DNA of 40,542 nucleotides from Candidatus Altimarinota bacterium (lineage in GTDB: Bacteria; Patescibacteriota; Gracilibacteria; UBA4473): the NCBI GenBank assembly GCA_020629095.1, contig JAHDDZ010000001.1, positions 1-40,542 on the forward strand. The letters run 5' to 3'. Positions 8,606-18,306 of this stretch are shown piece after piece. The position numbers and the translations under genes were made by a program. The stretch's first letter is position 1, and the number at the start of each line of letters is the position of its first letter. Under the pieces are notes generated by a model. That model ran no database searches and was not told where the DNA came from. It saw only the letters and a list, made by a program, of their open reading frames with translations.

Positions 8606-9649
8606 TTAGGCACGAAATTGGGCATGAGCACTTGCCAAATCATGGCTCGTAATGGCACATAAAAGCGATAATTCGGCACACAAAACGCCAGCTCCAATCA
8701 CCATTGCCAGCTCGTCTGCTGCTTTCCCAGTGCCATTTTTTTGAGTCAGCCCAATGGCCTGTAGCCACTTGTTTTGTGTTGGAAGCCTTGTTCCACCGCC
8801 CACTGTGCCGACCAGTATGCATGGCATTTCAATCGTTATTTTAATTCCAGTATCTGTCTGCTGCAGGATGGTCGTGCCAGTTGCGCCATCTGCTATGTGC
8901 GATGGGTCTTGACCAGTAGCAATGAAAACTCCGGCTAGGATATTTGCATGGTGCGCATTTTGGCCAATAGCCTTAGCCAGTCGTGAACCACTTTTGAGCT
9001 TAGCCTCAGAGACTATTAGCAGTTCCTTTGGGGTCGTTTTCAGTACCTCTGACAGCACTTTTATGCTGATCTCTGCACTTGTTTTTATCATGCGCCCACG
9101 GCCGCTTGTGGCATTTCGCAGGCTGGCTTTTTTGTCACTGCACAGGTTTCCGCTCGTCGCAATCAACGTGCCTCCCCATTCTGGGACCAGCAGCTCATCA
9201 CAGATTCGTTTTGCGCTAATTGTAGCCATATTCATGCCCATCGCATCGGCCGTGTCAAACTTCATTTCAACGTGCACAAATTCATCATCTGTTAGTACTT
9301 TTGCCCCGAGCCATTGTGTGTGTAAGCTTGTTTGTTTGATGCATTTTTGAACTGCATCTGCATTTTCTCTAAACCAATTTTCATACCATTCTTGAGACTT
9401 TTTATTTTTAATTTTAAATACTGGTGCACGTGTAATTCCAACTCGTTGTATAGATGAAATAGCCCCACCACAAAGGCTAATTGCTTTTGCGCCGCGGTTG
9501 GCAGATGCAACTAAACAGGCCTCTGTGGTCGCGATCGGCAGAGCATATTTGTTCCCATTTACTTGCATTTCTTTGACCAGCCCAACGGGCAGCTCAACCA
9601 CACCAGATATATTTTCGCAGTTTTGTTCGTATGCGCTCAAATCGCTCAT
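8606..9649 (-). CDS. Class I-type HMG-CoA reductase, minimal catalytic domain
   Basis: Motifs seen: ENISGVVELPVG, TTEACLVAS, DAMGMNM, GTVGGGT and a C-terminal His (SAHAQF). I chose the ATG at 9649 because it forms an ATGA overlap with the upstream stop. An alternative ATG lies at 9676. Confidence 0.88.
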   Translation of the reverse strand: MSDLSAYEQNCENISGVVELPVGLVKEMQVNGNKYALPIATTEACLVASANRGAKAISLCGGAISSIQRVGITRAPVFKIKNKKSQEWYENWFRENADAVQKCIKQTSLHTQWLGAKVLTDDEFVHVEMKFDTADAMGMNMATISAKRICDELLVPEWGGTLIATSGNLCSDKKASLRNATSGRGRMIKTSAEISIKVLSEVLKTTPKELLIVSEAKLKSGSRLAKAIGQNAHHANILAGVFIATGQDPSHIADGATGTTILQQTDTGIKITIEMPCILVGTVGGGTRLPTQNKWLQAIGLTQKNGTGKAADELAMVIGAGVLCAELSLLCAITSHDLASAHAQFRA

Positions 9650-10263
9650 GCTGGCATTATACGCGTCGGCACGCAATTGTCACCCGCAAGCCACTTTTGC
9701 AGCACATTTGGTACCCCGTGAGAGATGTGCACAATGGCCCCCATGGCGGCGCAAGATCTTGCTGCAGCCACCTTTGCAGCGATTCCGCCAGTAGCATCAT
9801 GATTTTTTCTTGCAAAAGAAATGTTATTTTGCAGTTCTGCAATTGGCTTCTTTTCAGTATCAAATAAGCATGCATCGCTTAAAAAAAGAACCCGCTGCGG
9901 CTGAAGCCGTTTGCACAGATGTACCATAACTGCGTCTGATCCAGTTACCTCTTTGGGCTCAATTACCCCACGAGTGAGTTGTCCAGTGGCTGATTTGTCA
10001 TATCGCACAGAGGGTAAATCAAGACCGCATTTTGCGGCTGTTTGCTGAATTTTGCGAGTTAGCTCCACCATATTTTTGTGGCCGACTTCTCTATCATTTT
10101 GCAGCAAAGGCGGGTGCCCCCAGCTACCACCTCCATGCAGAATTATTCCCTTGAAATTACTTGCCGCCAGAACCATAAAAATCCCTTCTAACGCCGCTTC
10201 GTCGTAACTTTTTTCAACCATTTTATCACTAAAAATACTGCCTCCAATTTTAATAATATCCAT
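9646..10263 (-). CDS. ipk: Isopentenyl phosphate kinase (amino-acid-kinase fold)
   Basis: Motifs seen: IKIGGSIFSDK, ILHGGGSWGHP (the IPK His motif), LFLSDACLFD and DATGGIAAKV. The ATG at 10263 overlaps the upstream TGA by 1 nt (TGATG). An alternative TTG lies at 10266. Confidence 0.78.
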   Translation of the reverse strand: MDIIKIGGSIFSDKMVEKSYDEAALEGIFMVLAASNFKGIILHGGGSWGHPPLLQNDREVGHKNMVELTRKIQQTAAKCGLDLPSVRYDKSATGQLTRGVIEPKEVTGSDAVMVHLCKRLQPQRVLFLSDACLFDTEKKPIAELQNNISFARKNHDATGGIAAKVAAARSCAAMGAIVHISHGVPNVLQKWLAGDNCVPTRIMPA

Positions 10264-11243
10264 CAAAAAAGGTGCTGATTTGTTGCAGTTGCTCCCTTTC
10301 CAATTGGCGAGCTGATAATTTTTTCTATACCATCTATTTTGGCTATCGCACTTTCAACAATTTTTTTGTTTTTTACAGGTGTTAAAACGTGCACCGTGCT
10401 GCCAGCATCAAGCGTCCAAGTCACTGAAATGCCATCTTTTTGTAGGTCATAAACAGCGGCAATGATGGCTCCTGTTGTTTGATTTGTATAATTTAAAGAC
10501 GGATTACCGCTCATCATAACGGCATGGAGGGCAAGTGCCTGAGATTCTGAAATGGCGAGAAAAGCACTAAAATCTTGTTGAGAAATAGCGTGCTGAAGTT
10601 GCCTTATTTGTGCCTCACTCATTGTGATTCGGGCTTTTTGCAACGGGCTTTTTGCAGCAAAATCATGCCCTTCGAGCGAGCCAATCTGTTTTGGTTTTGT
10701 GTCTGAAACGGCAATAATATCAACCAAATTCCATTCATTTTCACCTGCTATTTTTTCTGTTTTTCCAGTTTGGAAAAGTGCCCCCCAGCCATCATGAGCA
10801 CTTCTTAGGGCAGAACCACTTCCGGCGATATGCATTAGGTCAATATGCTGCATTGGAGCGATCAGAATAGCGCTGCAAGCCGCGTACCATAGGGCACAAA
10901 CCCCAGACGCAGAAGACGCAATTCCGGCACTCATGGGGAAGTTAAGCTGGCTTTTGGCTTTCCATTTATGGGTTATTTCAGCAGTTTTAGCGATGGCATT
11001 TACCATATCAAAAATCATTTGTGCACGTGCTGAACTAGTTGGGTCAAGCTGTACCTCTTCTCCTGTTTCGAGCTCTATTGTTAATGTATTCTCATCGTAG
11101 TCAGCATCAAAACAAATTGTTGTATGCGCGGTGCAGGAGGCTAAATTCATGCTCAAACTCGGGCTGGCCGGTAGTCGGCCCTGCGCATGGCCCCAGTGCT
11201 TAATGATAGCAATATTGGCCGGAGCAATTGCGCTAGCTTTCAT
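10263..11243 (-). CDS. Mevalonate diphosphate/phosphate decarboxylase homolog (GHMP family)
   Basis: APANIAIIKHWG corresponds to APVNIA.IKYWGK in known enzymes. NFPMSAGIASSASG, GSGSALRS and TLDAGST also match. I chose the ATG at 11243 (ATGA overlap with the idi stop); the track ORF starts at 11273. Confidence 0.85.
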   Translation of the reverse strand: MKASAIAPANIAIIKHWGHAQGRLPASPSLSMNLASCTAHTTICFDADYDENTLTIELETGEEVQLDPTSSARAQMIFDMVNAIAKTAEITHKWKAKSQLNFPMSAGIASSASGVCALWYAACSAILIAPMQHIDLMHIAGSGSALRSAHDGWGALFQTGKTEKIAGENEWNLVDIIAVSDTKPKQIGSLEGHDFAAKSPLQKARITMSEAQIRQLQHAISQQDFSAFLAISESQALALHAVMMSGNPSLNYTNQTTGAIIAAVYDLQKDGISVTWTLDAGSTVHVLTPVKNKKIVESAIAKIDGIEKIISSPIGKGATATNQHLF

Positions 11244-11800
11244 ACTTTTTGCTGATTTATATTTTCTTTCCACCAGTCGCTAAAGGCTTTATTGTGGTGC
11301 AATAAAAGTACTTCCTCTCGGCACCATGGGCTCAGGTGACTCCATTCTATCATCCTATTTTGCAGCAAATTGTTCCAATTTACCCACTGCGTTTTTGCCA
11401 CTTCGTCTGCATTTGGCTTGGGGGCATCTGACAAAGTTCCAACCCAAATTGGGCACCATTCGTGCTCCATGACTTCATCCATAGTGGCCCTATAACTATA
11501 GTTTGGCACCATCTCAATTATGCTTTTTGGTGAAACCCCAAGCTCAAATTGAGCTCTTCGCGTAACGGCATCAGTCATTTTTTCACCAGGTAGCGGGTGC
11601 CCACAAACTGAGTTGCTCCATACGCCAGGCCACGTTTTCTTGCTATGAGATCGTTGTTGCAGCAATAGTTTGCCGTCTGGAGAAAATAAAAAGCAAGAGA
11701 AAGCTTTATGCAGAGGCGTTTTTGAGCTATGAACAGTGGCTTTTAAGGTTGTGCCAATTTCATTCCAATTAGCATCGAGCAGGATGACTTCTTCGTTCAT
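11240..11800 (-). CDS. idi: Type 1 isopentenyl-diphosphate delta-isomerase (Nudix fold)
   Basis: Motifs seen: LHKAFSCFLF, LLLQQRSHSKKTWPGVWSNSVCGHP and EHEWCPIW. Length is 186 aa. Confidence 0.9.
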   Translation of the reverse strand: MNEEVILLDANWNEIGTTLKATVHSSKTPLHKAFSCFLFSPDGKLLLQQRSHSKKTWPGVWSNSVCGHPLPGEKMTDAVTRRAQFELGVSPKSIIEMVPNYSYRATMDEVMEHEWCPIWVGTLSDAPKPNADEVAKTQWVNWNNLLQNRMIEWSHLSPWCREEVLLLHHNKAFSDWWKENINQQKV

Positions 11801-12654
11801 AGGCTGATTATACTCGATAGGTGTGCCACGGCCAGTGGCCCAAAAAAGTACCAGAAGGCAATCATTCCCATAAGGGTGTTTATGACGGGAAGTCTCTTGT
11901 AGACAGCAAAAAGAGTGGAATTACTTTTCCAGCTTGTAAAAATAATAGTTGTATAGACTCCCATTCCAAGGATTCCTGCGAGTAGAGAATATTGCAGAGT
12001 AATCGCAAAAGTCGTCATCCATAAGGCCCACACATACATAAGCGTTCTGTGCTTGCCAAGAGTAGTAGCTGTAGTAGAAAGGCCCGCTTTCGTATCAGCG
12101 GGGATGTCTGGAATAGCACTATATGCATGCATTCCCACCATCATCGACCAAATTCCCACAAATGCAACCCAGTCTGACGGTTCAGTTGAAATAGACCAAT
12201 ATCCTATGAGTGCTGGGCAAGTATACAACACATTGCTAACCGAGTCAAGAAATGGCCGTGCCTTCAGTCGAACTGGCGGAAGAGAGTAGCTGAGTGACAA
12301 AATAAGCCAGCCCGCCCATGCCACCTGCGCAGCTATTGGAGTAATCAGCAGTAGTGGTACAACTGGCAGATGTAAGAGTAAGATCCACCACACCAATGGG
12401 CGCGTTTTACTGCTTTTGTGGCGGTTTTCATATCCATCTTTTTTTGCATTCAGTGCGTCTGTGTCTCGATCACTTATGTCATTTATGCCATATACTAGTA
12501 GATTTGCCGGCAGGGTAAAATATGCCAACCAAAGCCAAAAAGTGGGCGTCCAGAAGTCACCAACAGACTCTGCTCCGGCCGCCCAGCCTACGGCAAATGT
12601 CCCGGCTAAATACCCCCAAAACCGTGGCCGACTGGTCCTCAAAATCCATTTCAT
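11797..12654 (-). CDS. UbiA-family aromatic/polyprenyl prenyltransferase, possibly lycopene-elongase-like
   Basis: The protein is polytopic. It starts with SRPRFWGYLAG. The first Asp-rich motif is YGINDISDRDTDALNAKK and the second is AIPDIPADTKAGLSTTATTLG. It sits directly after crtB and crtI. The family call is firm; the substrate call is an inference. Confidence 0.75.
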   Translation of the reverse strand: MKWILRTSRPRFWGYLAGTFAVGWAAGAESVGDFWTPTFWLWLAYFTLPANLLVYGINDISDRDTDALNAKKDGYENRHKSSKTRPLVWWILLLHLPVVPLLLITPIAAQVAWAGWLILSLSYSLPPVRLKARPFLDSVSNVLYTCPALIGYWSISTEPSDWVAFVGIWSMMVGMHAYSAIPDIPADTKAGLSTTATTLGKHRTLMYVWALWMTTFAITLQYSLLAGILGMGVYTTIIFTSWKSNSTLFAVYKRLPVINTLMGMIAFWYFFGPLAVAHLSSIISL

Positions 12655-14168
12655 GAGAGATCAGTTAATGATGTGAGCATACTACCAGATCGGTCATTTA
12701 TGATGTATTTATAGGCCAATTGACTGCTGAGTAAGCTAATTGGCACTCCGATGCCGGGGTTTGTGCCAGCCCCTGTATACAGCAAATTTTCCACTTTTTT
12801 GCTTTTGGCAGGGGGTCTAAAACATGCCGTTTGCCTCAGTGTATGGGCCAATCCAAGCGCACTCCCACCATATGCGTTATATCTGTCTTTGAAGTCGCTG
12901 ATACTAAAACTTCGCTGAAACACAATTCGCTCGCGGAGGTTTTTTATCGGAAACTTTTCCTCCATATGCGCCAAAACGCGGTCGATTTCACGTGCCCTGG
13001 TGGCATCATCATCGAGTAATTTGGGACTTATTGGCACCAGTACAAATAGGTTTTCATGTCCATCTGGGGCAGTTTCTGGCTCAGTCTTGCTCGGGGCACA
13101 TACATACAAACTTGGCTCAGTTGGATATTTTGGGTTGATAAAAAGTTCATCAAAACCGCCTTTCCAGTCATCTGCAAAAATGAGATTATGGTGGACCAAA
13201 TGATCGCATTTCCCCTTTACCCCAAGATATAAAATGAGTCCACTGGGCGCCCATTTGCGCTTTTTCCAATACGGTTTTGAGTAGGTTCTATGCCGCTTTT
13301 TAGTTATCAGTTGTGTTTCTGTGAAGGCATAATCGGCATTGCTAATGACGATATCAGCATGCATTTCAGTTCCGTTTTGCAGCCGCACGCCCACCGCCTT
13401 TTTGTCTTCTATTAAAATCTCCGCCACTTCTGTGTTCAGCCGTATGTCTGCTCCGTGTTTTTTTGCAATGCCCGCAAACGACTTCATGACCGCGTGCAGA
13501 CCCCCTTTAGGGTACCACACCCCCATGTTGAAATCAATATGACTCATGAGGCTATAGATCGCAGGAGCATCATATGGTGAGGTGCCCAAGAATACCATTG
13601 CGTACTGCAAAATCCGCTGTATATGAGAGTTTTTTGTATATTTTTCTACGTGCTTTGCGAAGCTCGAAAAGACCCCCAGCTCCATTCCCATGCGGGCTGT
13701 GCGCAGGTTTATCAGATCAAAAATACTCTCATAATTCTTGCACATAAAATCACTCTTACTGATTTCATATTTCGTTTTTGCCTTCTCTAAGTACGCCAAA
13801 AGTCGTGGTGTGACACCTTTTTCAAATGCCTCAAAAGTAGGCAAATCTTTCTTCAAGTCACTAAAAATCGTAGTTGGGGGCGTCAGATCATTATTCCCCC
13901 ACCATATTTTATAGGCGGGATCAAGCTGTGTCAGCTCCAGCTGTTCCTCTACCTTTTCACCTAGCAGTGCATAAAAATCTGCAAATAAATCTGGCATTAA
14001 ATACCAACTGGGTCCCATATCAAAACGAAACCCATCAGCCTCGAAAAAACCTCCACGACCGCCTACGCACTCATTTTTTTCCACCACTGTCACCTGCGCC
14101 CCAGATCTTGCCAGTAAGGCTGCAGCTCCAAGCCCTCCGATGCCACTGCCGATAATTATTGTTTTCAT
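12651..14168 (-). CDS. crtI: Phytoene (or diapophytoene) desaturase, CrtI family
   Basis: The FAD motif reads IIIGSGIGGLGAAALLARSG..VVEKN..GGR. The C-terminus has YTGAGTNPGIGVP. I chose the ATG at 14168 (MKTIIIGSG), which forms an ATGA overlap with the crtB stop. The track ORF starts at 14198. Confidence 0.85.
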   Translation of the reverse strand: MKTIIIGSGIGGLGAAALLARSGAQVTVVEKNECVGGRGGFFEADGFRFDMGPSWYLMPDLFADFYALLGEKVEEQLELTQLDPAYKIWWGNNDLTPPTTIFSDLKKDLPTFEAFEKGVTPRLLAYLEKAKTKYEISKSDFMCKNYESIFDLINLRTARMGMELGVFSSFAKHVEKYTKNSHIQRILQYAMVFLGTSPYDAPAIYSLMSHIDFNMGVWYPKGGLHAVMKSFAGIAKKHGADIRLNTEVAEILIEDKKAVGVRLQNGTEMHADIVISNADYAFTETQLITKKRHRTYSKPYWKKRKWAPSGLILYLGVKGKCDHLVHHNLIFADDWKGGFDELFINPKYPTEPSLYVCAPSKTEPETAPDGHENLFVLVPISPKLLDDDATRAREIDRVLAHMEEKFPIKNLRERIVFQRSFSISDFKDRYNAYGGSALGLAHTLRQTACFRPPAKSKKVENLLYTGAGTNPGIGVPISLLSSQLAYKYIINDRSGSMLTSLTDLS

Positions 14169-15013
14169 GAAAAAAGGGCTAATCGGAGTTTTTGCCACTT
14201 GCTAAGCGAATAATTGCTGTGGTGCACATGGTACTCAGACTGCTCAATTTTGTCTAAATATGCCGAATAAAGCTGGCTCGCGGCTCGAACAGCCCACCGC
14301 CCACGAGGGTGCAATTTCTCTATTGCAGGGGCTGCTTCCGCATATAATTTTCTGGCACGTGCAGCCTGGAATTGCATAAAATCTGCCCATCCTTTTGGAT
14401 ATTCTTTTTTTGCAATATGTGCCTCCGTTATACCCCATTTTGCCATTTCGTCAGCCGGTAAATAAATTCGCCCGAGGTCAAAATAATCCTCTGAAATATC
14501 TCGTAAAAAATTTGTGAGTTGCATGGCATATCCCAGTTTTGCAGCCGCATTAAGTGTTTCTTTATCTGGAGGAGATCTATCTGCCATGCCAATGGCGTAG
14601 GTCATGAGCACGCCCACCGCGGCAGCAGATCCGTCCATATATGTACACAGATCGCTATAATTTGCATATCGATTTTTATGGGTGTCCATGCGCATTGCGG
14701 CCAAAAAAGAACTAGCGTGTTTTGGTGGCACTTTTAGCTCTTGGTGCAAACCTGCAGCTGCCAGGAGCACGGGGTGCGTTGTTGAGTCCACTCCTATTTG
14801 CGCCTTTTCCCATGCAGCCTCCCAGGCGCTCAGGGACTGTTTTTTGTTTTGTATTTCAGGGCTATCCACTATGTCATCTGGCAATCGAAAAAAGGCATAG
14901 ATGATGTAGGTACGGTCACGAAGCCACTTTGGAAATAGACGCGTTGCACTTGCGTAGGTTGGTCCACGATTGTGCATTATGGCTTTACAAAAGGCAATAT
15001 CATGCTTTTTCAT
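14165..15013 (-). CDS. crtB: Phytoene/squalene synthase family enzyme (CrtB/CrtM type)
   Basis: Asp-rich motifs FFRLPDDIVDS and NFLRDISEDY are present, plus YMDGSAAAVG. Length is 282 aa. Confidence 0.85.
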   Translation of the reverse strand: MKKHDIAFCKAIMHNRGPTYASATRLFPKWLRDRTYIIYAFFRLPDDIVDSPEIQNKKQSLSAWEAAWEKAQIGVDSTTHPVLLAAAGLHQELKVPPKHASSFLAAMRMDTHKNRYANYSDLCTYMDGSAAAVGVLMTYAIGMADRSPPDKETLNAAAKLGYAMQLTNFLRDISEDYFDLGRIYLPADEMAKWGITEAHIAKKEYPKGWADFMQFQAARARKLYAEAAPAIEKLHPRGRWAVRAASQLYSAYLDKIEQSEYHVHHSNYSLSKWQKLRLALFS

Positions 15014-15948
15014 GCGGTTCGATTCATTAAAAAGTGAAGCAAATCAAAGAGCGAGTTATGCTGTTTTTCACTCAGAGGGCAATTCTTTAGAAGTGTTAAA
15101 GCTGTTTCATGGTGCTTTTGTGCTACTTCTTGGGTGGCGGCATATGCGCCTATTTCGGCATAAAATGCATGAATTTGCTCTATGTTTTTTGTATCTAAAA
15201 TGGCTTTGTGCTTCTCTGGTTTTTGTATTTGTGCATAGGCTGTATAGTGCGTTGCCTTTCCCTCCATGATATCATTAAGCACAGGTTTTCCCACTTCCTC
15301 ACTGTCAGACTGGGTGTCTAGCAGGTCATCCATCAACTGAAATGCCGTTCCCACAGCAGTGCCCCATGCCTCTGCCCAAGCCAGTTGTTGATTCGTTGTT
15401 TTAGTGGCCATAAGGCCCAACTGTAAAGGGCGTGTCACAGAGTATGTTGCTGTCTTTAAATAGGTTTTTTGCAGCACATTCTCCATGCTGCTTTGCGGTG
15501 TTAATTGGGCATCGAGCACTTGTCCAGAGAGGACTTCGCGCTGAAGTGCGCTCCATGTTTTTTGCGCAGCTTCATGGGGGTTTGTTTTTGAAAAATACTC
15601 ATGAGAGAGCATCAGCAGCCAGTCACCAGACAGCAAAGCAAGGTCATTTCCAACCTCTGTATGAACCGTTTTGCTTCCTCGCCGCAGGGGGGAATTGTCC
15701 ATGATATCATCATGTACTAAGGCAAATCCATGCAACAGCTCAAGTGCAATTTGTAGGTTATTTCTAGAAAAATCATCTGCGCCAATGGCCGCAAGATATG
15801 GACGAATACGTTTCCCTCCACGGAGAACTAAATCAGCTGCAGGGGCAAATGCAACCTTGGCAGAGTCATGCGGTAATGCCAAAAGGCTATCAGAAAGGGC
15901 ATCTTTAAGGGTTTTTTGAAAGATATTTGCGTATGGAATTATTTTCAT
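15010..15948 (-). CDS. Polyprenyl diphosphate synthase (GGPP/FPP synthase type)
   Basis: The first Asp-rich motif is LVHDDIMDNSPLRRG and the second is FQLMDDLLD. I chose the ATG at 15948 (MKIIPYANIF, 312 aa) because it forms an ATGA overlap with the preceding small gene. The track ORF extends to 16104. Confidence 0.85.
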   Translation of the reverse strand: MKIIPYANIFQKTLKDALSDSLLALPHDSAKVAFAPAADLVLRGGKRIRPYLAAIGADDFSRNNLQIALELLHGFALVHDDIMDNSPLRRGSKTVHTEVGNDLALLSGDWLLMLSHEYFSKTNPHEAAQKTWSALQREVLSGQVLDAQLTPQSSMENVLQKTYLKTATYSVTRPLQLGLMATKTTNQQLAWAEAWGTAVGTAFQLMDDLLDTQSDSEEVGKPVLNDIMEGKATHYTAYAQIQKPEKHKAILDTKNIEQIHAFYAEIGAYAATQEVAQKHHETALTLLKNCPLSEKQHNSLFDLLHFLMNRTA

Positions 15949-16205
15949 AAAAGTGGCATCAAGGCAGGGGCATGGACTATTCTTCCATCTGGCAGTATAT
16001 TTTTTCGCATCATAATAATCTTCACTCTTTGTCCTTCCGCGCATGTATATCCTGGCATGATTGGAAAAATATGCTTTTTGGCTTCCAATTGAGTCAATGC
16101 CCAAGTACCACTATTTGAGGTCGTCACATGCAAAATGGTTCCACTCTTGCCTATAAACGCTTTATCTTTTTGCCACAAACGGTTTTGCTGCGTAGGGGAT
16201 ATCAT
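15945..16205 (-). CDS. Small DUF35/OB-fold acyl-CoA-associated protein homolog (86 aa, no zinc ribbon)
   Basis: This is the C-terminal 86 aa of track ORF 15945..16364, starting at the ATG at 16205. That ATG forms an ATGA overlap with the thiolase stop. The sequence is MISPTQQNRLWQKDKAFIGKSGTILHVTTSNSGTWALTQLEAKKHIFPIMPGYTCAEGQRVKIIMMRKNILPDGRIVHAPALMPLL. It has the G.G.v...T / v.L.e / iG..V pattern of the DUF35 OB domain. Its position after HMGCS and thiolase matches the archaeal gene order. Confidence 0.5.
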   Translation of the reverse strand: MISPTQQNRLWQKDKAFIGKSGTILHVTTSNSGTWALTQLEAKKHIFPIMPGYTCAEGQRVKIIMMRKNILPDGRIVHAPALMPLL

Positions 16206-17308
16206 GCTTTTTTGACTATGTGAATAACAACGGTTCCGCCGGTTCCCCCCACATTGTGTGCCAGACCTGTTTTGACTCGGTCTGTTTGGTTTCTGGCAAG
16301 GGTTATAAGCTGTCGCACGCCGGTTGCGCCAACCGGGTGCCCAAAAGCTTTTAACCCTCCCCATGGGTTTATAATTATTTCAGATTCTCTTTGTAGCATT
16401 GTCTCTAAAAGTGAATGCGCTTGCCCTCTTTTTGCTAGCCCGAGGTCCTCCACTGCAAGAGAAAGTGATATAGAAAAACAGTCATGCAAGCAGTATTGGT
16501 CAATATCAGAAATGCTTATTTCAGCCTGATTTAGGGCATTAGCGAGAACCATGCTTGTTGTCAAAATCTGTGTTAAATCTGCCCGATTTGAAAGCCCTGG
16601 AGGACCACTTTTGGTGGCACTGGCAGTGATTTGTGTGGAGGACTTTTTGGCACTCAGCACAAGGGCGGCGGCACCATCTGTGATGGGGGCTGCGTGTAGC
16701 AGTCGCATGGGGCTGCTCACCATCTGGCTTGATTCAATTTGTTTATTTGAGAAGTTTTTATGAAACTGCGCCAAAGTATTTTCAGTTGCCTGGCGGTGCA
16801 TCAGTTGCATTCCAGGGCTAAAAACTGTTGCATCGTGCCCATGCTTTTTCATATAGGCCTGTGCGATGAGGGCATAGAGACCACCAAAAGTGATGCCGGT
16901 TGAGCTCTCCGCCTCAGTTGTCGCTCCCATCAGCGCTTGGTTGACGGTTGCACTAGAGTGATCTGTCATTTTTTCTGTGCCGATGACAAGAGCATTTGTA
17001 GCAAATCCAGCAAAGACATCCTTCCATCCTAAATGCACAGCAATACCACCAGAAGCGCAAGCGGCCTCCGTTCTGATACAAGCTGCAGAAATGCCCAACT
17101 TTTCTGCAATAATAGCACCTAGGTGTCCTTGCTCATCAAGGGCAATTCCGAGCATATTTCCAACATAGAGCACATCAATATCAGCGGGACTAATACCACT
17201 TTCAGAGAGCGCTTCAGCTCCCGCGAACACCCCCAAGTCAACCGCGGAAAGGCCATCATGCCGCCCAAATTTTGTGCATCCAGTTCCGTTTATAAAGACA
17301 GAATTCAT
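16202..17308 (-). CDS. Archaeal-type acetyl-CoA acetyltransferase (thiolase)
   Basis: The start reads INGTGCTKFGRH. The catalytic Cys context is TEAACASGG. The C-terminus has HPVGATG and NVGGTGG. Length is 368 aa. Confidence 0.9.
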   Translation of the reverse strand: MNSVFINGTGCTKFGRHDGLSAVDLGVFAGAEALSESGISPADIDVLYVGNMLGIALDEQGHLGAIIAEKLGISAACIRTEAACASGGIAVHLGWKDVFAGFATNALVIGTEKMTDHSSATVNQALMGATTEAESSTGITFGGLYALIAQAYMKKHGHDATVFSPGMQLMHRQATENTLAQFHKNFSNKQIESSQMVSSPMRLLHAAPITDGAAALVLSAKKSSTQITASATKSGPPGLSNRADLTQILTTSMVLANALNQAEISISDIDQYCLHDCFSISLSLAVEDLGLAKRGQAHSLLETMLQRESEIIINPWGGLKAFGHPVGATGVRQLITLARNQTDRVKTGLAHNVGGTGGTVVIHIVKKA

Positions 17309-18306
17309 GAAAGTGGGCGGTTTATTTCATTATATGCTTGTGCGTCAAGCACCTGCATGGCGGCTATCTGTTCTCGAATAGGCATTGTTTTACACCCACT
17401 TTCAGCTTTTTTTGTGACCACAAATGCATCAGCCCCAGCCCCAGAGCCGTAACTGCAGCAAAGGATTTTGTCTCCAATTTTTGCTTCATCAAGGGCAGCG
17501 CAAAGCCCCAAAGGTATACAGGCTGCATAGGTATTTCCAATCAGCGGAACCAGCCACCCAGCAGCTAATTGTGCTCTTGTTATCACCATTTTTTGTGCTA
17601 CTTTGAGGGGGAGTTTTGCGTTTGGCTGGTGCAAGATTACATGCGCATAATCTGCTATTTTGCTTTGTGTTTCATTCAGCAATAACTGCAGTGCGCCGCA
17701 CACAACCTCTATGTAGGTCTCATTGCTATGCGCCCCAGCATGGATTGGATGATCTGCCTTGTTACTGCGCCAAAAGTCTAGTCTATGAACTGAATAGCTC
17801 TGCCAAGATTCTATGGTGGCAATAGGCGTTTTACCCACTAAAAAAGCGGCAGCACCTGCCCCAGCCGTGTAGTGCAGTGGGTCCCCAACTTTGCCAGTTG
17901 CACAGTCCGAGGCAACCGCAATTCCACTTTGGCTGCGGCCTGTCGCTACATGGCACAGGGCCATGTCGAGTGCGACGGTTCCGGCTTTGCAGGCAAATTC
18001 AACATCAGCCGTTTGGCAGTTTGTATCCATGCCAATTCCATCGACAATCATACTGCTAGTTGGGTTTACTGCATAGAGGGGCGTTTCGCTCCCGAAAAAA
18101 AGACATCCGGCTTTCTGTGTCGTTAGGCTACTTGCGGCTCGCAACCCAAGTGTCAAACTGTCAGTCGCCGTGCCTGGAATAGATTTTTGTGAAACACCCA
18201 GCCCAGCGTACAGCGTTTTTGGCTGCCCGGCTAACTCCGCAAGCAGTTCTTGTTGTGCACAAAAACCAGGAATCGCCACCCCATATTCTTGTATTCCAAT
18301 TGCCAT
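17305..18306 (-). CDS. Archaeal-type HMG-CoA synthase
   Basis: VEFACKAGT holds the catalytic Cys. LHQPN and IGNTYAAC are also present. Length is 333 aa. Confidence 0.88.
   Translation of the reverse strand: MAIGIQEYGVAIPGFCAQQELLAELAGQPKTLYAGLGVSQKSIPGTATDSLTLGLRAASSLTTQKAGCLFFGSETPLYAVNPTSSMIVDGIGMDTNCQTADVEFACKAGTVALDMALCHVATGRSQSGIAVASDCATGKVGDPLHYTAGAGAAAFLVGKTPIATIESWQSYSVHRLDFWRSNKADHPIHAGAHSNETYIEVVCGALQLLLNETQSKIADYAHVILHQPNAKLPLKVAQKMVITRAQLAAGWLVPLIGNTYAACIPLGLCAALDEAKIGDKILCCSYGSGAGADAFVVTKKAESGCKTMPIREQIAAMQVLDAQAYNEINRPLS

Follow-up and report, generated by a model that had tools for sequence, protein, structure and literature searches.

The mevalonate (MVA) route that runs through mevalonate kinase (MVK), phosphomevalonate decarboxylase (PMD, also MPD) and isopentenyl phosphate kinase (IPK) was demonstrated by Dellas 2013 (PMC3857490) in Roseiflexus castenholzii, and this haloarchaea/Chloroflexi-type pathway is assigned to halophilic archaea and some Chloroflexi (PMC9254496). 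In bacteria of the candidate phyla radiation (CPR), MVK, phosphomevalonate kinase (PMVK) and diphosphomevalonate decarboxylase (DPMD, also MDD or DMD) were described together with IPKs of unknown role (Hoshino & Gaucher 2018), and a 'near-complete' mevalonate pathway was reported for Peribacteria (Anantharaman 2016, PMC4736985). No characterised PMD or IPK from the CPR was found in the literature we searched. We analyzed a 40,542-nucleotide stretch of DNA from Candidatus Altimarinota bacterium (assembly GCA_020629095.1, contig JAHDDZ010000001.1, here C31), called the window below, in which a minus-strand operon spanning 18881 to 8606 encodes an MVD-family decarboxylase directly followed by a shortened IPK homolog. 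Together with a divergent MVK homolog on another contig (C70), these genes probably form an MVK, PMD, IPK and isopentenyl diphosphate isomerase (IDI) series, which would be the haloarchaea/Chloroflexi-type route in a CPR bacterium. The genes of the proposed pathway are as follows.

17305..18306, minus strand: archaeal-type hydroxymethylglutaryl-CoA (HMG-CoA) synthase (NF003274, 293 bits against a cut-off of 244)
16202..17308, minus strand: archaeal-type acetoacetyl-CoA thiolase (Pfam thiolase domains; NF004720, 318 bits against a cut-off of 420, and NF053570, 275 bits against one of 600)
11240..11800, minus strand: IDI-1, type-1 isopentenyl diphosphate (IPP) isomerase (NF002995, 217 bits against a cut-off of 127), directly upstream of the decarboxylase
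10263..11243, minus strand: MVD-family GHMP protein of 326 aa (Pfam MVD-like_N and MDD_C), read as a putative decarboxylase of mevalonate 5-phosphate (MVA-5-P)
9646..10263, minus strand: shortened IPK homolog of 205 aa, amino-acid-kinase family (best family, archaeal IPK NF040647)
8606..9649, minus strand: class-I HMG-CoA reductase (PF00368, 310.7 bits), directly downstream of the IPK homolog
C70:13765-14628, minus strand: divergent mevalonate kinase homolog, 284-aa open reading frame (ORF) (TIGR00549)

In the proposed pathway, the thiolase, HMG-CoA synthase and HMG-CoA reductase of the operon would make mevalonate from acetyl-CoA via HMG-CoA, and the C70 kinase would phosphorylate mevalonate to MVA-5-P. 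The 326-aa GHMP protein would then carry out ATP-dependent phosphorylation of the 3-OH of MVA-5-P followed by decarboxylation, yielding isopentenyl phosphate, which the 205-aa protein would phosphorylate to IPP. IDI-1 would make dimethylallyl diphosphate, and the products would feed the operon's own geranylgeranyl diphosphate (GGPP) synthase and carotenoid genes. PMVK would play no part in this route. The substrate specificities given here, like the activity of the shortened IPK, are read from gene content, motifs, genomic context, fold prediction and co-occurrence.

This arrangement shares several features with the haloarchaea/Chloroflexi-type pathway: an MVK, an MVD-family decarboxylase without the Lys21-type site but with conserved ATP-dependent decarboxylation machinery, an IPK, and no PMVK found. 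The decarboxylase and the IPK are likewise neighbours in Chloroflexota, Acidobacteriota and some CPR clusters. The host differs, being a roughly 1-Mb Peregrinibacteria/Gracilibacteria-like CPR bacterium, and the window proteins share no more than 39% identity with any other protein and lie on their own long branch. Further differences are the residue at the Lys21 site (His in the window, Asn in Anaerolinea thermophila, Leu in Roseiflexus), the IPK length (205 aa against about 240-270), the embedding of the genes in a carotenoid operon and the unlinked MVK. With the usual CPR set, the window has in common the archaeal-type thiolase and HMG-CoA synthase, the class-I HMG-CoA reductase, IDI-1 and the IPK/IDI-1 synteny, whereas its genome has no detected PMVK-type paralog. 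The pathway type is thus a known one in a new and very divergent host lineage, and the unusually short IPK is the one real oddity.

The decarboxylase matches PF22700 and PF18376 and has the MVD-type two-domain GHMP fold with an ATP P-loop. Its motif PMSAGIASSASG aligns with PTGAGIASSAAA of 6n0x, the A. thermophila enzyme, which is the nearest solved structure (E 9e-45; classical MDDs reach about 1e-26) and the only solved PMD (PMC9254496). The P-loop and the equivalents of Arg144, Lys188 and Asp283 are kept, and conserved TLDAG, GSGSALRS and TKPK motifs supply the catalytic Asp, the carboxylate Arg and the ATP-contacting loop Lys. The roles of these residues, including the catalytic Asp (Asp280 in A. 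thermophila PMD, Asp281 in S. solfataricus DMD), are taken from PMC9254496. Because the catalytic Asp, Arg, Lys and P-loop are all kept, the protein belongs to the ATP-dependent type, which excludes Thermoplasma-type mevalonate 3-kinase (M3K) and mevalonate bisphosphate decarboxylase (MBD). The Thermoplasma-type route as a whole (M3K, M3P-5-kinase and MBD) was rejected on the same Asp, which is missing from M3K; it is also contradicted by the presence of an MVK and by the ATP Lys and P-loop, which are dispensable in MBD.

The classical distal-phosphate site of the decarboxylase is altered at three positions, where Lys21 is replaced by His, Arg193 by Leu and Met196 by His. Lys21 is invariant in MDDs and replaced in MPDs (Dellas 2013 Table 4, PMC3857490). 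The mutant chain of 6n0z carries its two substitutions at these same sites; the engineered PMD positions were deduced by comparing two PDB chain sequences. The family models agree with neither specificity at cut-off level: TIGR01240 (diphosphomevalonate decarboxylase), the top NCBIfam match, gave 135.9 bits against a cut-off of 171.35, and NF040704 (MvaD), a model built on haloarchaeal enzymes, gave 110.6 bits, far below its cut-off of 475. As a classical MDD/DMD, the protein would be short of Lys21, of Arg193, of a passing TIGR01240 score and of a detectable PMVK partner. The catalytic Asp itself varies elsewhere in the CPR. It is replaced by Asn (NTGQD for DAGPN) in the Arg/Lys/Thr-type decarboxylases of L007 (G101), L009 (G230), L033, L035 and L089, four of which occur with a PMVK-type kinase; a Sulfolobus D281N mutant was reported to be still active (PMC9254496).

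The first-pass annotation of this DNA had placed an MVD-family protein at 10263-11243 and an IPK homolog at 9646-10263, and ORFs with domain and family matches reproduce both assignments and coordinates exactly. It had described the decarboxylase as the only GHMP member of the operon, and a six-frame PF00288 scan together with our own MVK/MVD profiles indeed found no other GHMP gene in the 40.5-kb window. It had also found no PMVK and no MVK there. The former was likewise not found by us in the window; the latter holds for the operon and the window but fails for the genome. When the PF00288 scan was extended in six frames to the whole assembly, as that annotation had proposed, exactly two GHMP genes appeared, the decarboxylase and a gene on C70 (domain match C70:14203-14421). 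An MVK on another contig resolves the missing-kinase anomaly.

The C70 product matched TIGR00549 at 2.6e-32 and 112 bits, below the cut-off of 163, and phosphomevalonate kinase at just 1e-3, and its best PDB matches are all mevalonate kinases. It keeps the N-terminal Lys, the Glu-His pair, the P-loop, the catalytic Asp in SGID and the motif III sequence KxTGAGG. The GC content of C70 (46.9%) is close to that of C31 (46.5%), as is its tetranucleotide usage (r 0.978 and 0.975), so mis-binning is unlikely. Because the PMVKs of CPR bacteria are paralogs of MVK and pass the MVK model as well, we built separate PMVK-type and MVK-type profiles. The PMVK-type profile consisted of the decarboxylase-adjacent kinases of outside clusters with three GHMP genes, which form their own clade (100% SH-aLRT). 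The MVK-type profile consisted of the second kinases of those clusters, the single kinases of IPK-bearing clusters and two solved MVKs. The C70 kinase scored 141 bits on the MVK-type profile versus 57 on the PMVK-type profile, and its orthologs scored 126 vs 37.5 and 108 vs 29 bits. In Microgenomates-type CPR clusters, the putative PMVKs adjoining the decarboxylase (L033:4985-5998, L034:5027-6001, L038:5006-5998 and L046:4946-6001) form a clade of their own; their scores pass the TIGR00549 cut-off (185-215 bits) but fall short of that for PMVK, so both paralogs would be called mevalonate kinase by automatic annotation.

No PMVK was found in the window's genome, a 73%-complete assembly of 760 kb in 86 contigs, by TIGR01220, PF04275 or our own MVK/PMVK-sensitive profiles. 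The most serious alternative, which we regard as unlikely, starts from this completeness. A classical series of MVK, PMVK and diphosphomevalonate decarboxylase would operate, with the PMVK gene lying in the unassembled quarter and the IPK salvaging isopentenyl phosphate or having an unrelated role. It would agree with the MVK, PMVK and DPMD set that Hoshino & Gaucher (2018) gave as usual for the CPR, in which the IPK has no known role, and with the first rank of TIGR01240 among the NCBIfam matches, though that score is below the cut-off. The missing Lys21 and Arg193 of the decarboxylase speak against it, and so do two relatives with orthologous clusters. Of the 43 genomes in the family, only three carry an MVD homolog: the window's genome, G111 (one closed contig of 1.3 Mb, 99% complete) and G021 (95% complete). 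All three share one MVK-type kinase and one decarboxylase that is directly followed by an IPK, and no third GHMP gene or PMVK was found in any of them. The G111 cluster runs HMG-CoA synthase, thiolase, IDI, decarboxylase, IPK, MVK and HMG-CoA reductase, and the position of MVK inside it ties the ortholog group of the C70 kinase to the pathway.

The residue after the YWG motif, which is the Lys21 site, also bears on the classical series. We took 80 named loci from the protein alignment and scored the 24 with clear kinase/IPK context. Lys or Arg occupied the site in 7 of the 8 outside clusters with a PMVK-type kinase and no IPK, whereas none of the 16 with one MVK-type kinase and an IPK had either residue. 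Outside the family, PMVK-type kinases adjoin the decarboxylase and go with Lys or Arg at this site. Within the class, Arg was found in both genomes with a PMVK-type kinase and Asn in all ten without one. The window (His), G111 (Thr) and G021 (Leu) all fall on the IPK side. Among the phosphate-site positions compared, the Lys21 site alone discriminates PMVK-linked from IPK-linked clusters; His at the Met196 position was rejected as a PMD marker, being found in 4 of the 8 PMVK-linked clusters too. A decarboxylase-adjacent PMVK-type kinase and an IPK never occurred together in the sampled clusters. This pattern suggests that CPR lineages use PMVK or IPK beside the decarboxylase, not both, as two alternative routes, instead of carrying an IPK irrespective of their other genes.

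The IPK homolog is where the window departs most from its counterparts; it falls about 45 residues short of every other IPK, a point that the first-pass annotation did not raise. Its match to NF040647 is split between model positions 2-53 and 151-259 and gives 71.2 bits against a cut-off of 120. In an alignment with 66 relatives, 45 of 245 core columns are gone, in blocks of 12, 21, 4 and 6; the main losses, 12 columns after residue 61 and 21 after residue 94, both lie in the N-terminal acceptor-binding lobe. An active-site His sets IPKs apart from other amino acid kinases (Dellas 2013, PMC3857490), and it is kept here in HGGGSWGH, where H50 is equivalent to His60 of M. jannaschii. Besides this His, K6, G8, G9, K15, G54, P140, G144, D213, T215 and G216 are conserved across IPKs (Dellas 2013, PMC3857490). 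Nine of these ten are retained (K5, G7, G8, K14, G44, G99, D156, T158 and G159), as is K164, and the Pro140 equivalent is Gln95. The AlphaFold2 model is compact (pLDDT 88.9, pTM 0.88). In a Foldseek search with it, PDB ranks 1-30 were all IPKs (TM 0.73-0.83), followed by FomA and glutamate 5-kinase.

The protein has no close relative in the databases. A word-based homolog search returned nothing beyond the IPK itself, and in an exhaustive search of 1.84 billion representative proteins the nearest non-self match had an E value of 4.8e-10; the matches were 256 aa long at the median, and none that seemed complete was shorter than 218 aa. In the regions lost from the window protein, the IPKs of G111 (240 aa) and G021 (about 226 aa) also show partial shortening. 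We therefore weighed whether the gene is decaying or its product inactive, with the pathway broken at the last step or completed by an unrecognised kinase. The loss of 45 core columns including the Pro140 equivalent, and the want of close relatives (1.84e9 representatives), would suit such decay. Ten sister-family genomes that carry an MVK and a PMD-like decarboxylase without an IPK also indicate that IPK-independent completion may exist in the class. Nevertheless, the reading frame is unbroken and coupled to both neighbours through its start and stop codons, none of the catalytic or nucleotide-site residues is lost, nor is the diagnostic His, the predicted fold is confident, and the partial shortening in the two relatives has the look of stepwise streamlining and not of a single lesion. 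Decay appears slightly less probable still than the classical series.

By sequence and structural model, the 205-aa protein would be an active, streamlined IPK, and this is the least secure step of the proposed pathway. A bolder version of this idea seems doubtful to us, if less so than the alternatives above: the protein may be a working IPK that has been minimised naturally, to about 20% below the size of the IPKs it matched, and the MVK, PMD-like and IPK set of the family would show that CPR IPKs complete a PMVK-free route. As the 21- and 12-column blocks are missing from the acceptor-binding lobe, a wider or different range of alkyl phosphates, such as longer prenyl phosphates or mevalonate 5-phosphate, is conceivable. 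The most extreme change, near to an alternative offered in the first-pass annotation and one in which an IPK homolog with an opened N-lobe replaces PMVK by converting MVA-5-P to the diphosphate for a classical diphosphomevalonate decarboxylase, uses the same chemistry (phosphoryl transfer onto an alkyl phosphate) and fits the location of the lost region in the acceptor-binding lobe, yet is very improbable given a decarboxylase without the residues that hold the second phosphate, relatives' IPKs of near full length (111.7 bits for G111 on the IPK model) and no precedent in the literature searched.

Several observations weigh against the MVK, PMD, IPK and IDI series that we favor. The incompleteness of the assembly makes the absence of PMVK from the window's genome alone weak, and the argument leans on G111. 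The outside-cluster and class co-occurrences are raw counts that ignore kinship. Two CPR clusters, L040 and L082, combine an IPK with a Lys- or Arg-type decarboxylase, so the Lys21-site marker is not absolute. The His in place of Lys21 could be protonated and carry a positive charge. Without 45 N-lobe core columns and the Pro140 equivalent, the IPK might be impaired or have an altered substrate. In the decarboxylase tree, the three family members sit on their own long branch, nested in neither the PMD nor the MDD group, and in the kinase tree they lie on long unresolved branches; since both trees are uninformative on placement, the profile-score contrasts were used. The proteins at issue are all distant from characterised enzymes, with scores below NCBIfam equivalog cut-offs.

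On balance, the route proposed in the first-pass annotation, with a decarboxylase acting on MVA-5-P, an IPK and a kinase encoded elsewhere, is supported by the C70 MVK homolog, the undetected PMVK and the His and Leu at Lys21 and Arg193, which are PMD-type in the active-site comparison that it had recommended. Its other suggestion, that the decarboxylase, the IPK or the first gene of the operon supplies the missing phosphorylation, is unneeded given the C70 MVK, and nothing supports it. The first gene, an MBL-fold protein, was rejected as a kinase: its sole match is a weak one to Lactamase_B_3, and it has no kinase features. That annotation had named canonical MVK and PMVK genes elsewhere in the genome as evidence against its view. 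An MVK homolog was found (C70) and a PMVK was not, which removes the anomaly and keeps the pathway assignment. The result is an otherwise ordinary and internally consistent pathway assignment, in which the kinase that motivated the analysis is not missing. It would give a concrete role to CPR IPK homologs, which the main comparative study left open (PMC6107057), and the PMVK-or-IPK pattern bears on arguments placing both routes in a common ancestor. A working 205-aa IPK, if true, would be of interest for building isopentenol-utilisation pathways.

IspH is missing from all three MVA-bearing genomes of the family and present in 14 other members; MVA would be the only route found in the three. 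Among the family (f1) genomes with either marker, none combines the MVA cluster with IspH, which belongs to the methylerythritol phosphate (MEP) pathway, and 26 of the 43 have neither. The exclusivity also holds inside genus g16, where G111 has the MVA cluster without IspH and G015, G231 and G237 have IspH.

The order of the operon is MBL-fold protein, archaeal-type HMG-CoA synthase, archaeal-type thiolase, a small ORF, GGPP-type prenyl synthase, CrtB, CrtI, UbiA prenyltransferase, IDI-1, MVD-family protein, IPK homolog and class-I HMG-CoA reductase. Three junctions were read in the DNA: the IDI stop and decarboxylase ATG share ATGA (11243-11240), the decarboxylase stop and IPK ATG share TGATG (10265-10261), and the IPK stop and HMG-CoA reductase ATG share ATGA (9649-9646). 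With their start and stop codons overlapping, these four genes are translationally coupled. The listed ORF of the reductase (8606-9676) over-runs, and the ATG overlapping the IPK stop at 9649 gives a 347-aa protein; its TIGR00533 score (281 bits) is below the cut-off of 442. The carotenoid block (GGPP-type synthase, CrtB, CrtI and UbiA prenyltransferase; 11797-16104) sits between the thiolase and IDI, and is missing from the otherwise collinear MVA cluster of G111 (L028, G111:C1:476000-495000). Bacterial markers include EF-Tu, DnaJ and DNA polymerase III delta, encoded in the window or assembly, and peptide deformylase, encoded on C70. The class of the host includes genomes with TGA-interrupted genes.

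The Peribacteria (family f8), which belong to the same class, likewise have an MVK-type kinase and an MVD-family decarboxylase without Lys at the diphosphate site, but an IPK was undetected in their genomes, unlike in the family of the window. In ten Peribacteria-like genomes (loci L004-L006, L008 and L010-L015 of G174, G180, G289, G149, G236, G082, G284, G242, G128 and G299), an MVK-type kinase lies directly upstream of an Asn-type, PMD-like decarboxylase, with neither a PMVK-type kinase nor an IPK, so the step from isopentenyl phosphate to IPP is unaccounted for. The IPK-profile matches in this sister family were rejected as IPKs, as they are ProB-like glutamate 5-kinases. The gene set agrees with the 'near-complete' Peribacteria pathway reported in 2016. 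Among the outside loci, the kinases and decarboxylases of L035 (titled Gammaproteobacteria) and L048 (titled archaeon) group tightly with CPR Microgenomates in both trees, which suggests that these two are mis-binned or mislabelled contigs of metagenome-assembled genomes.

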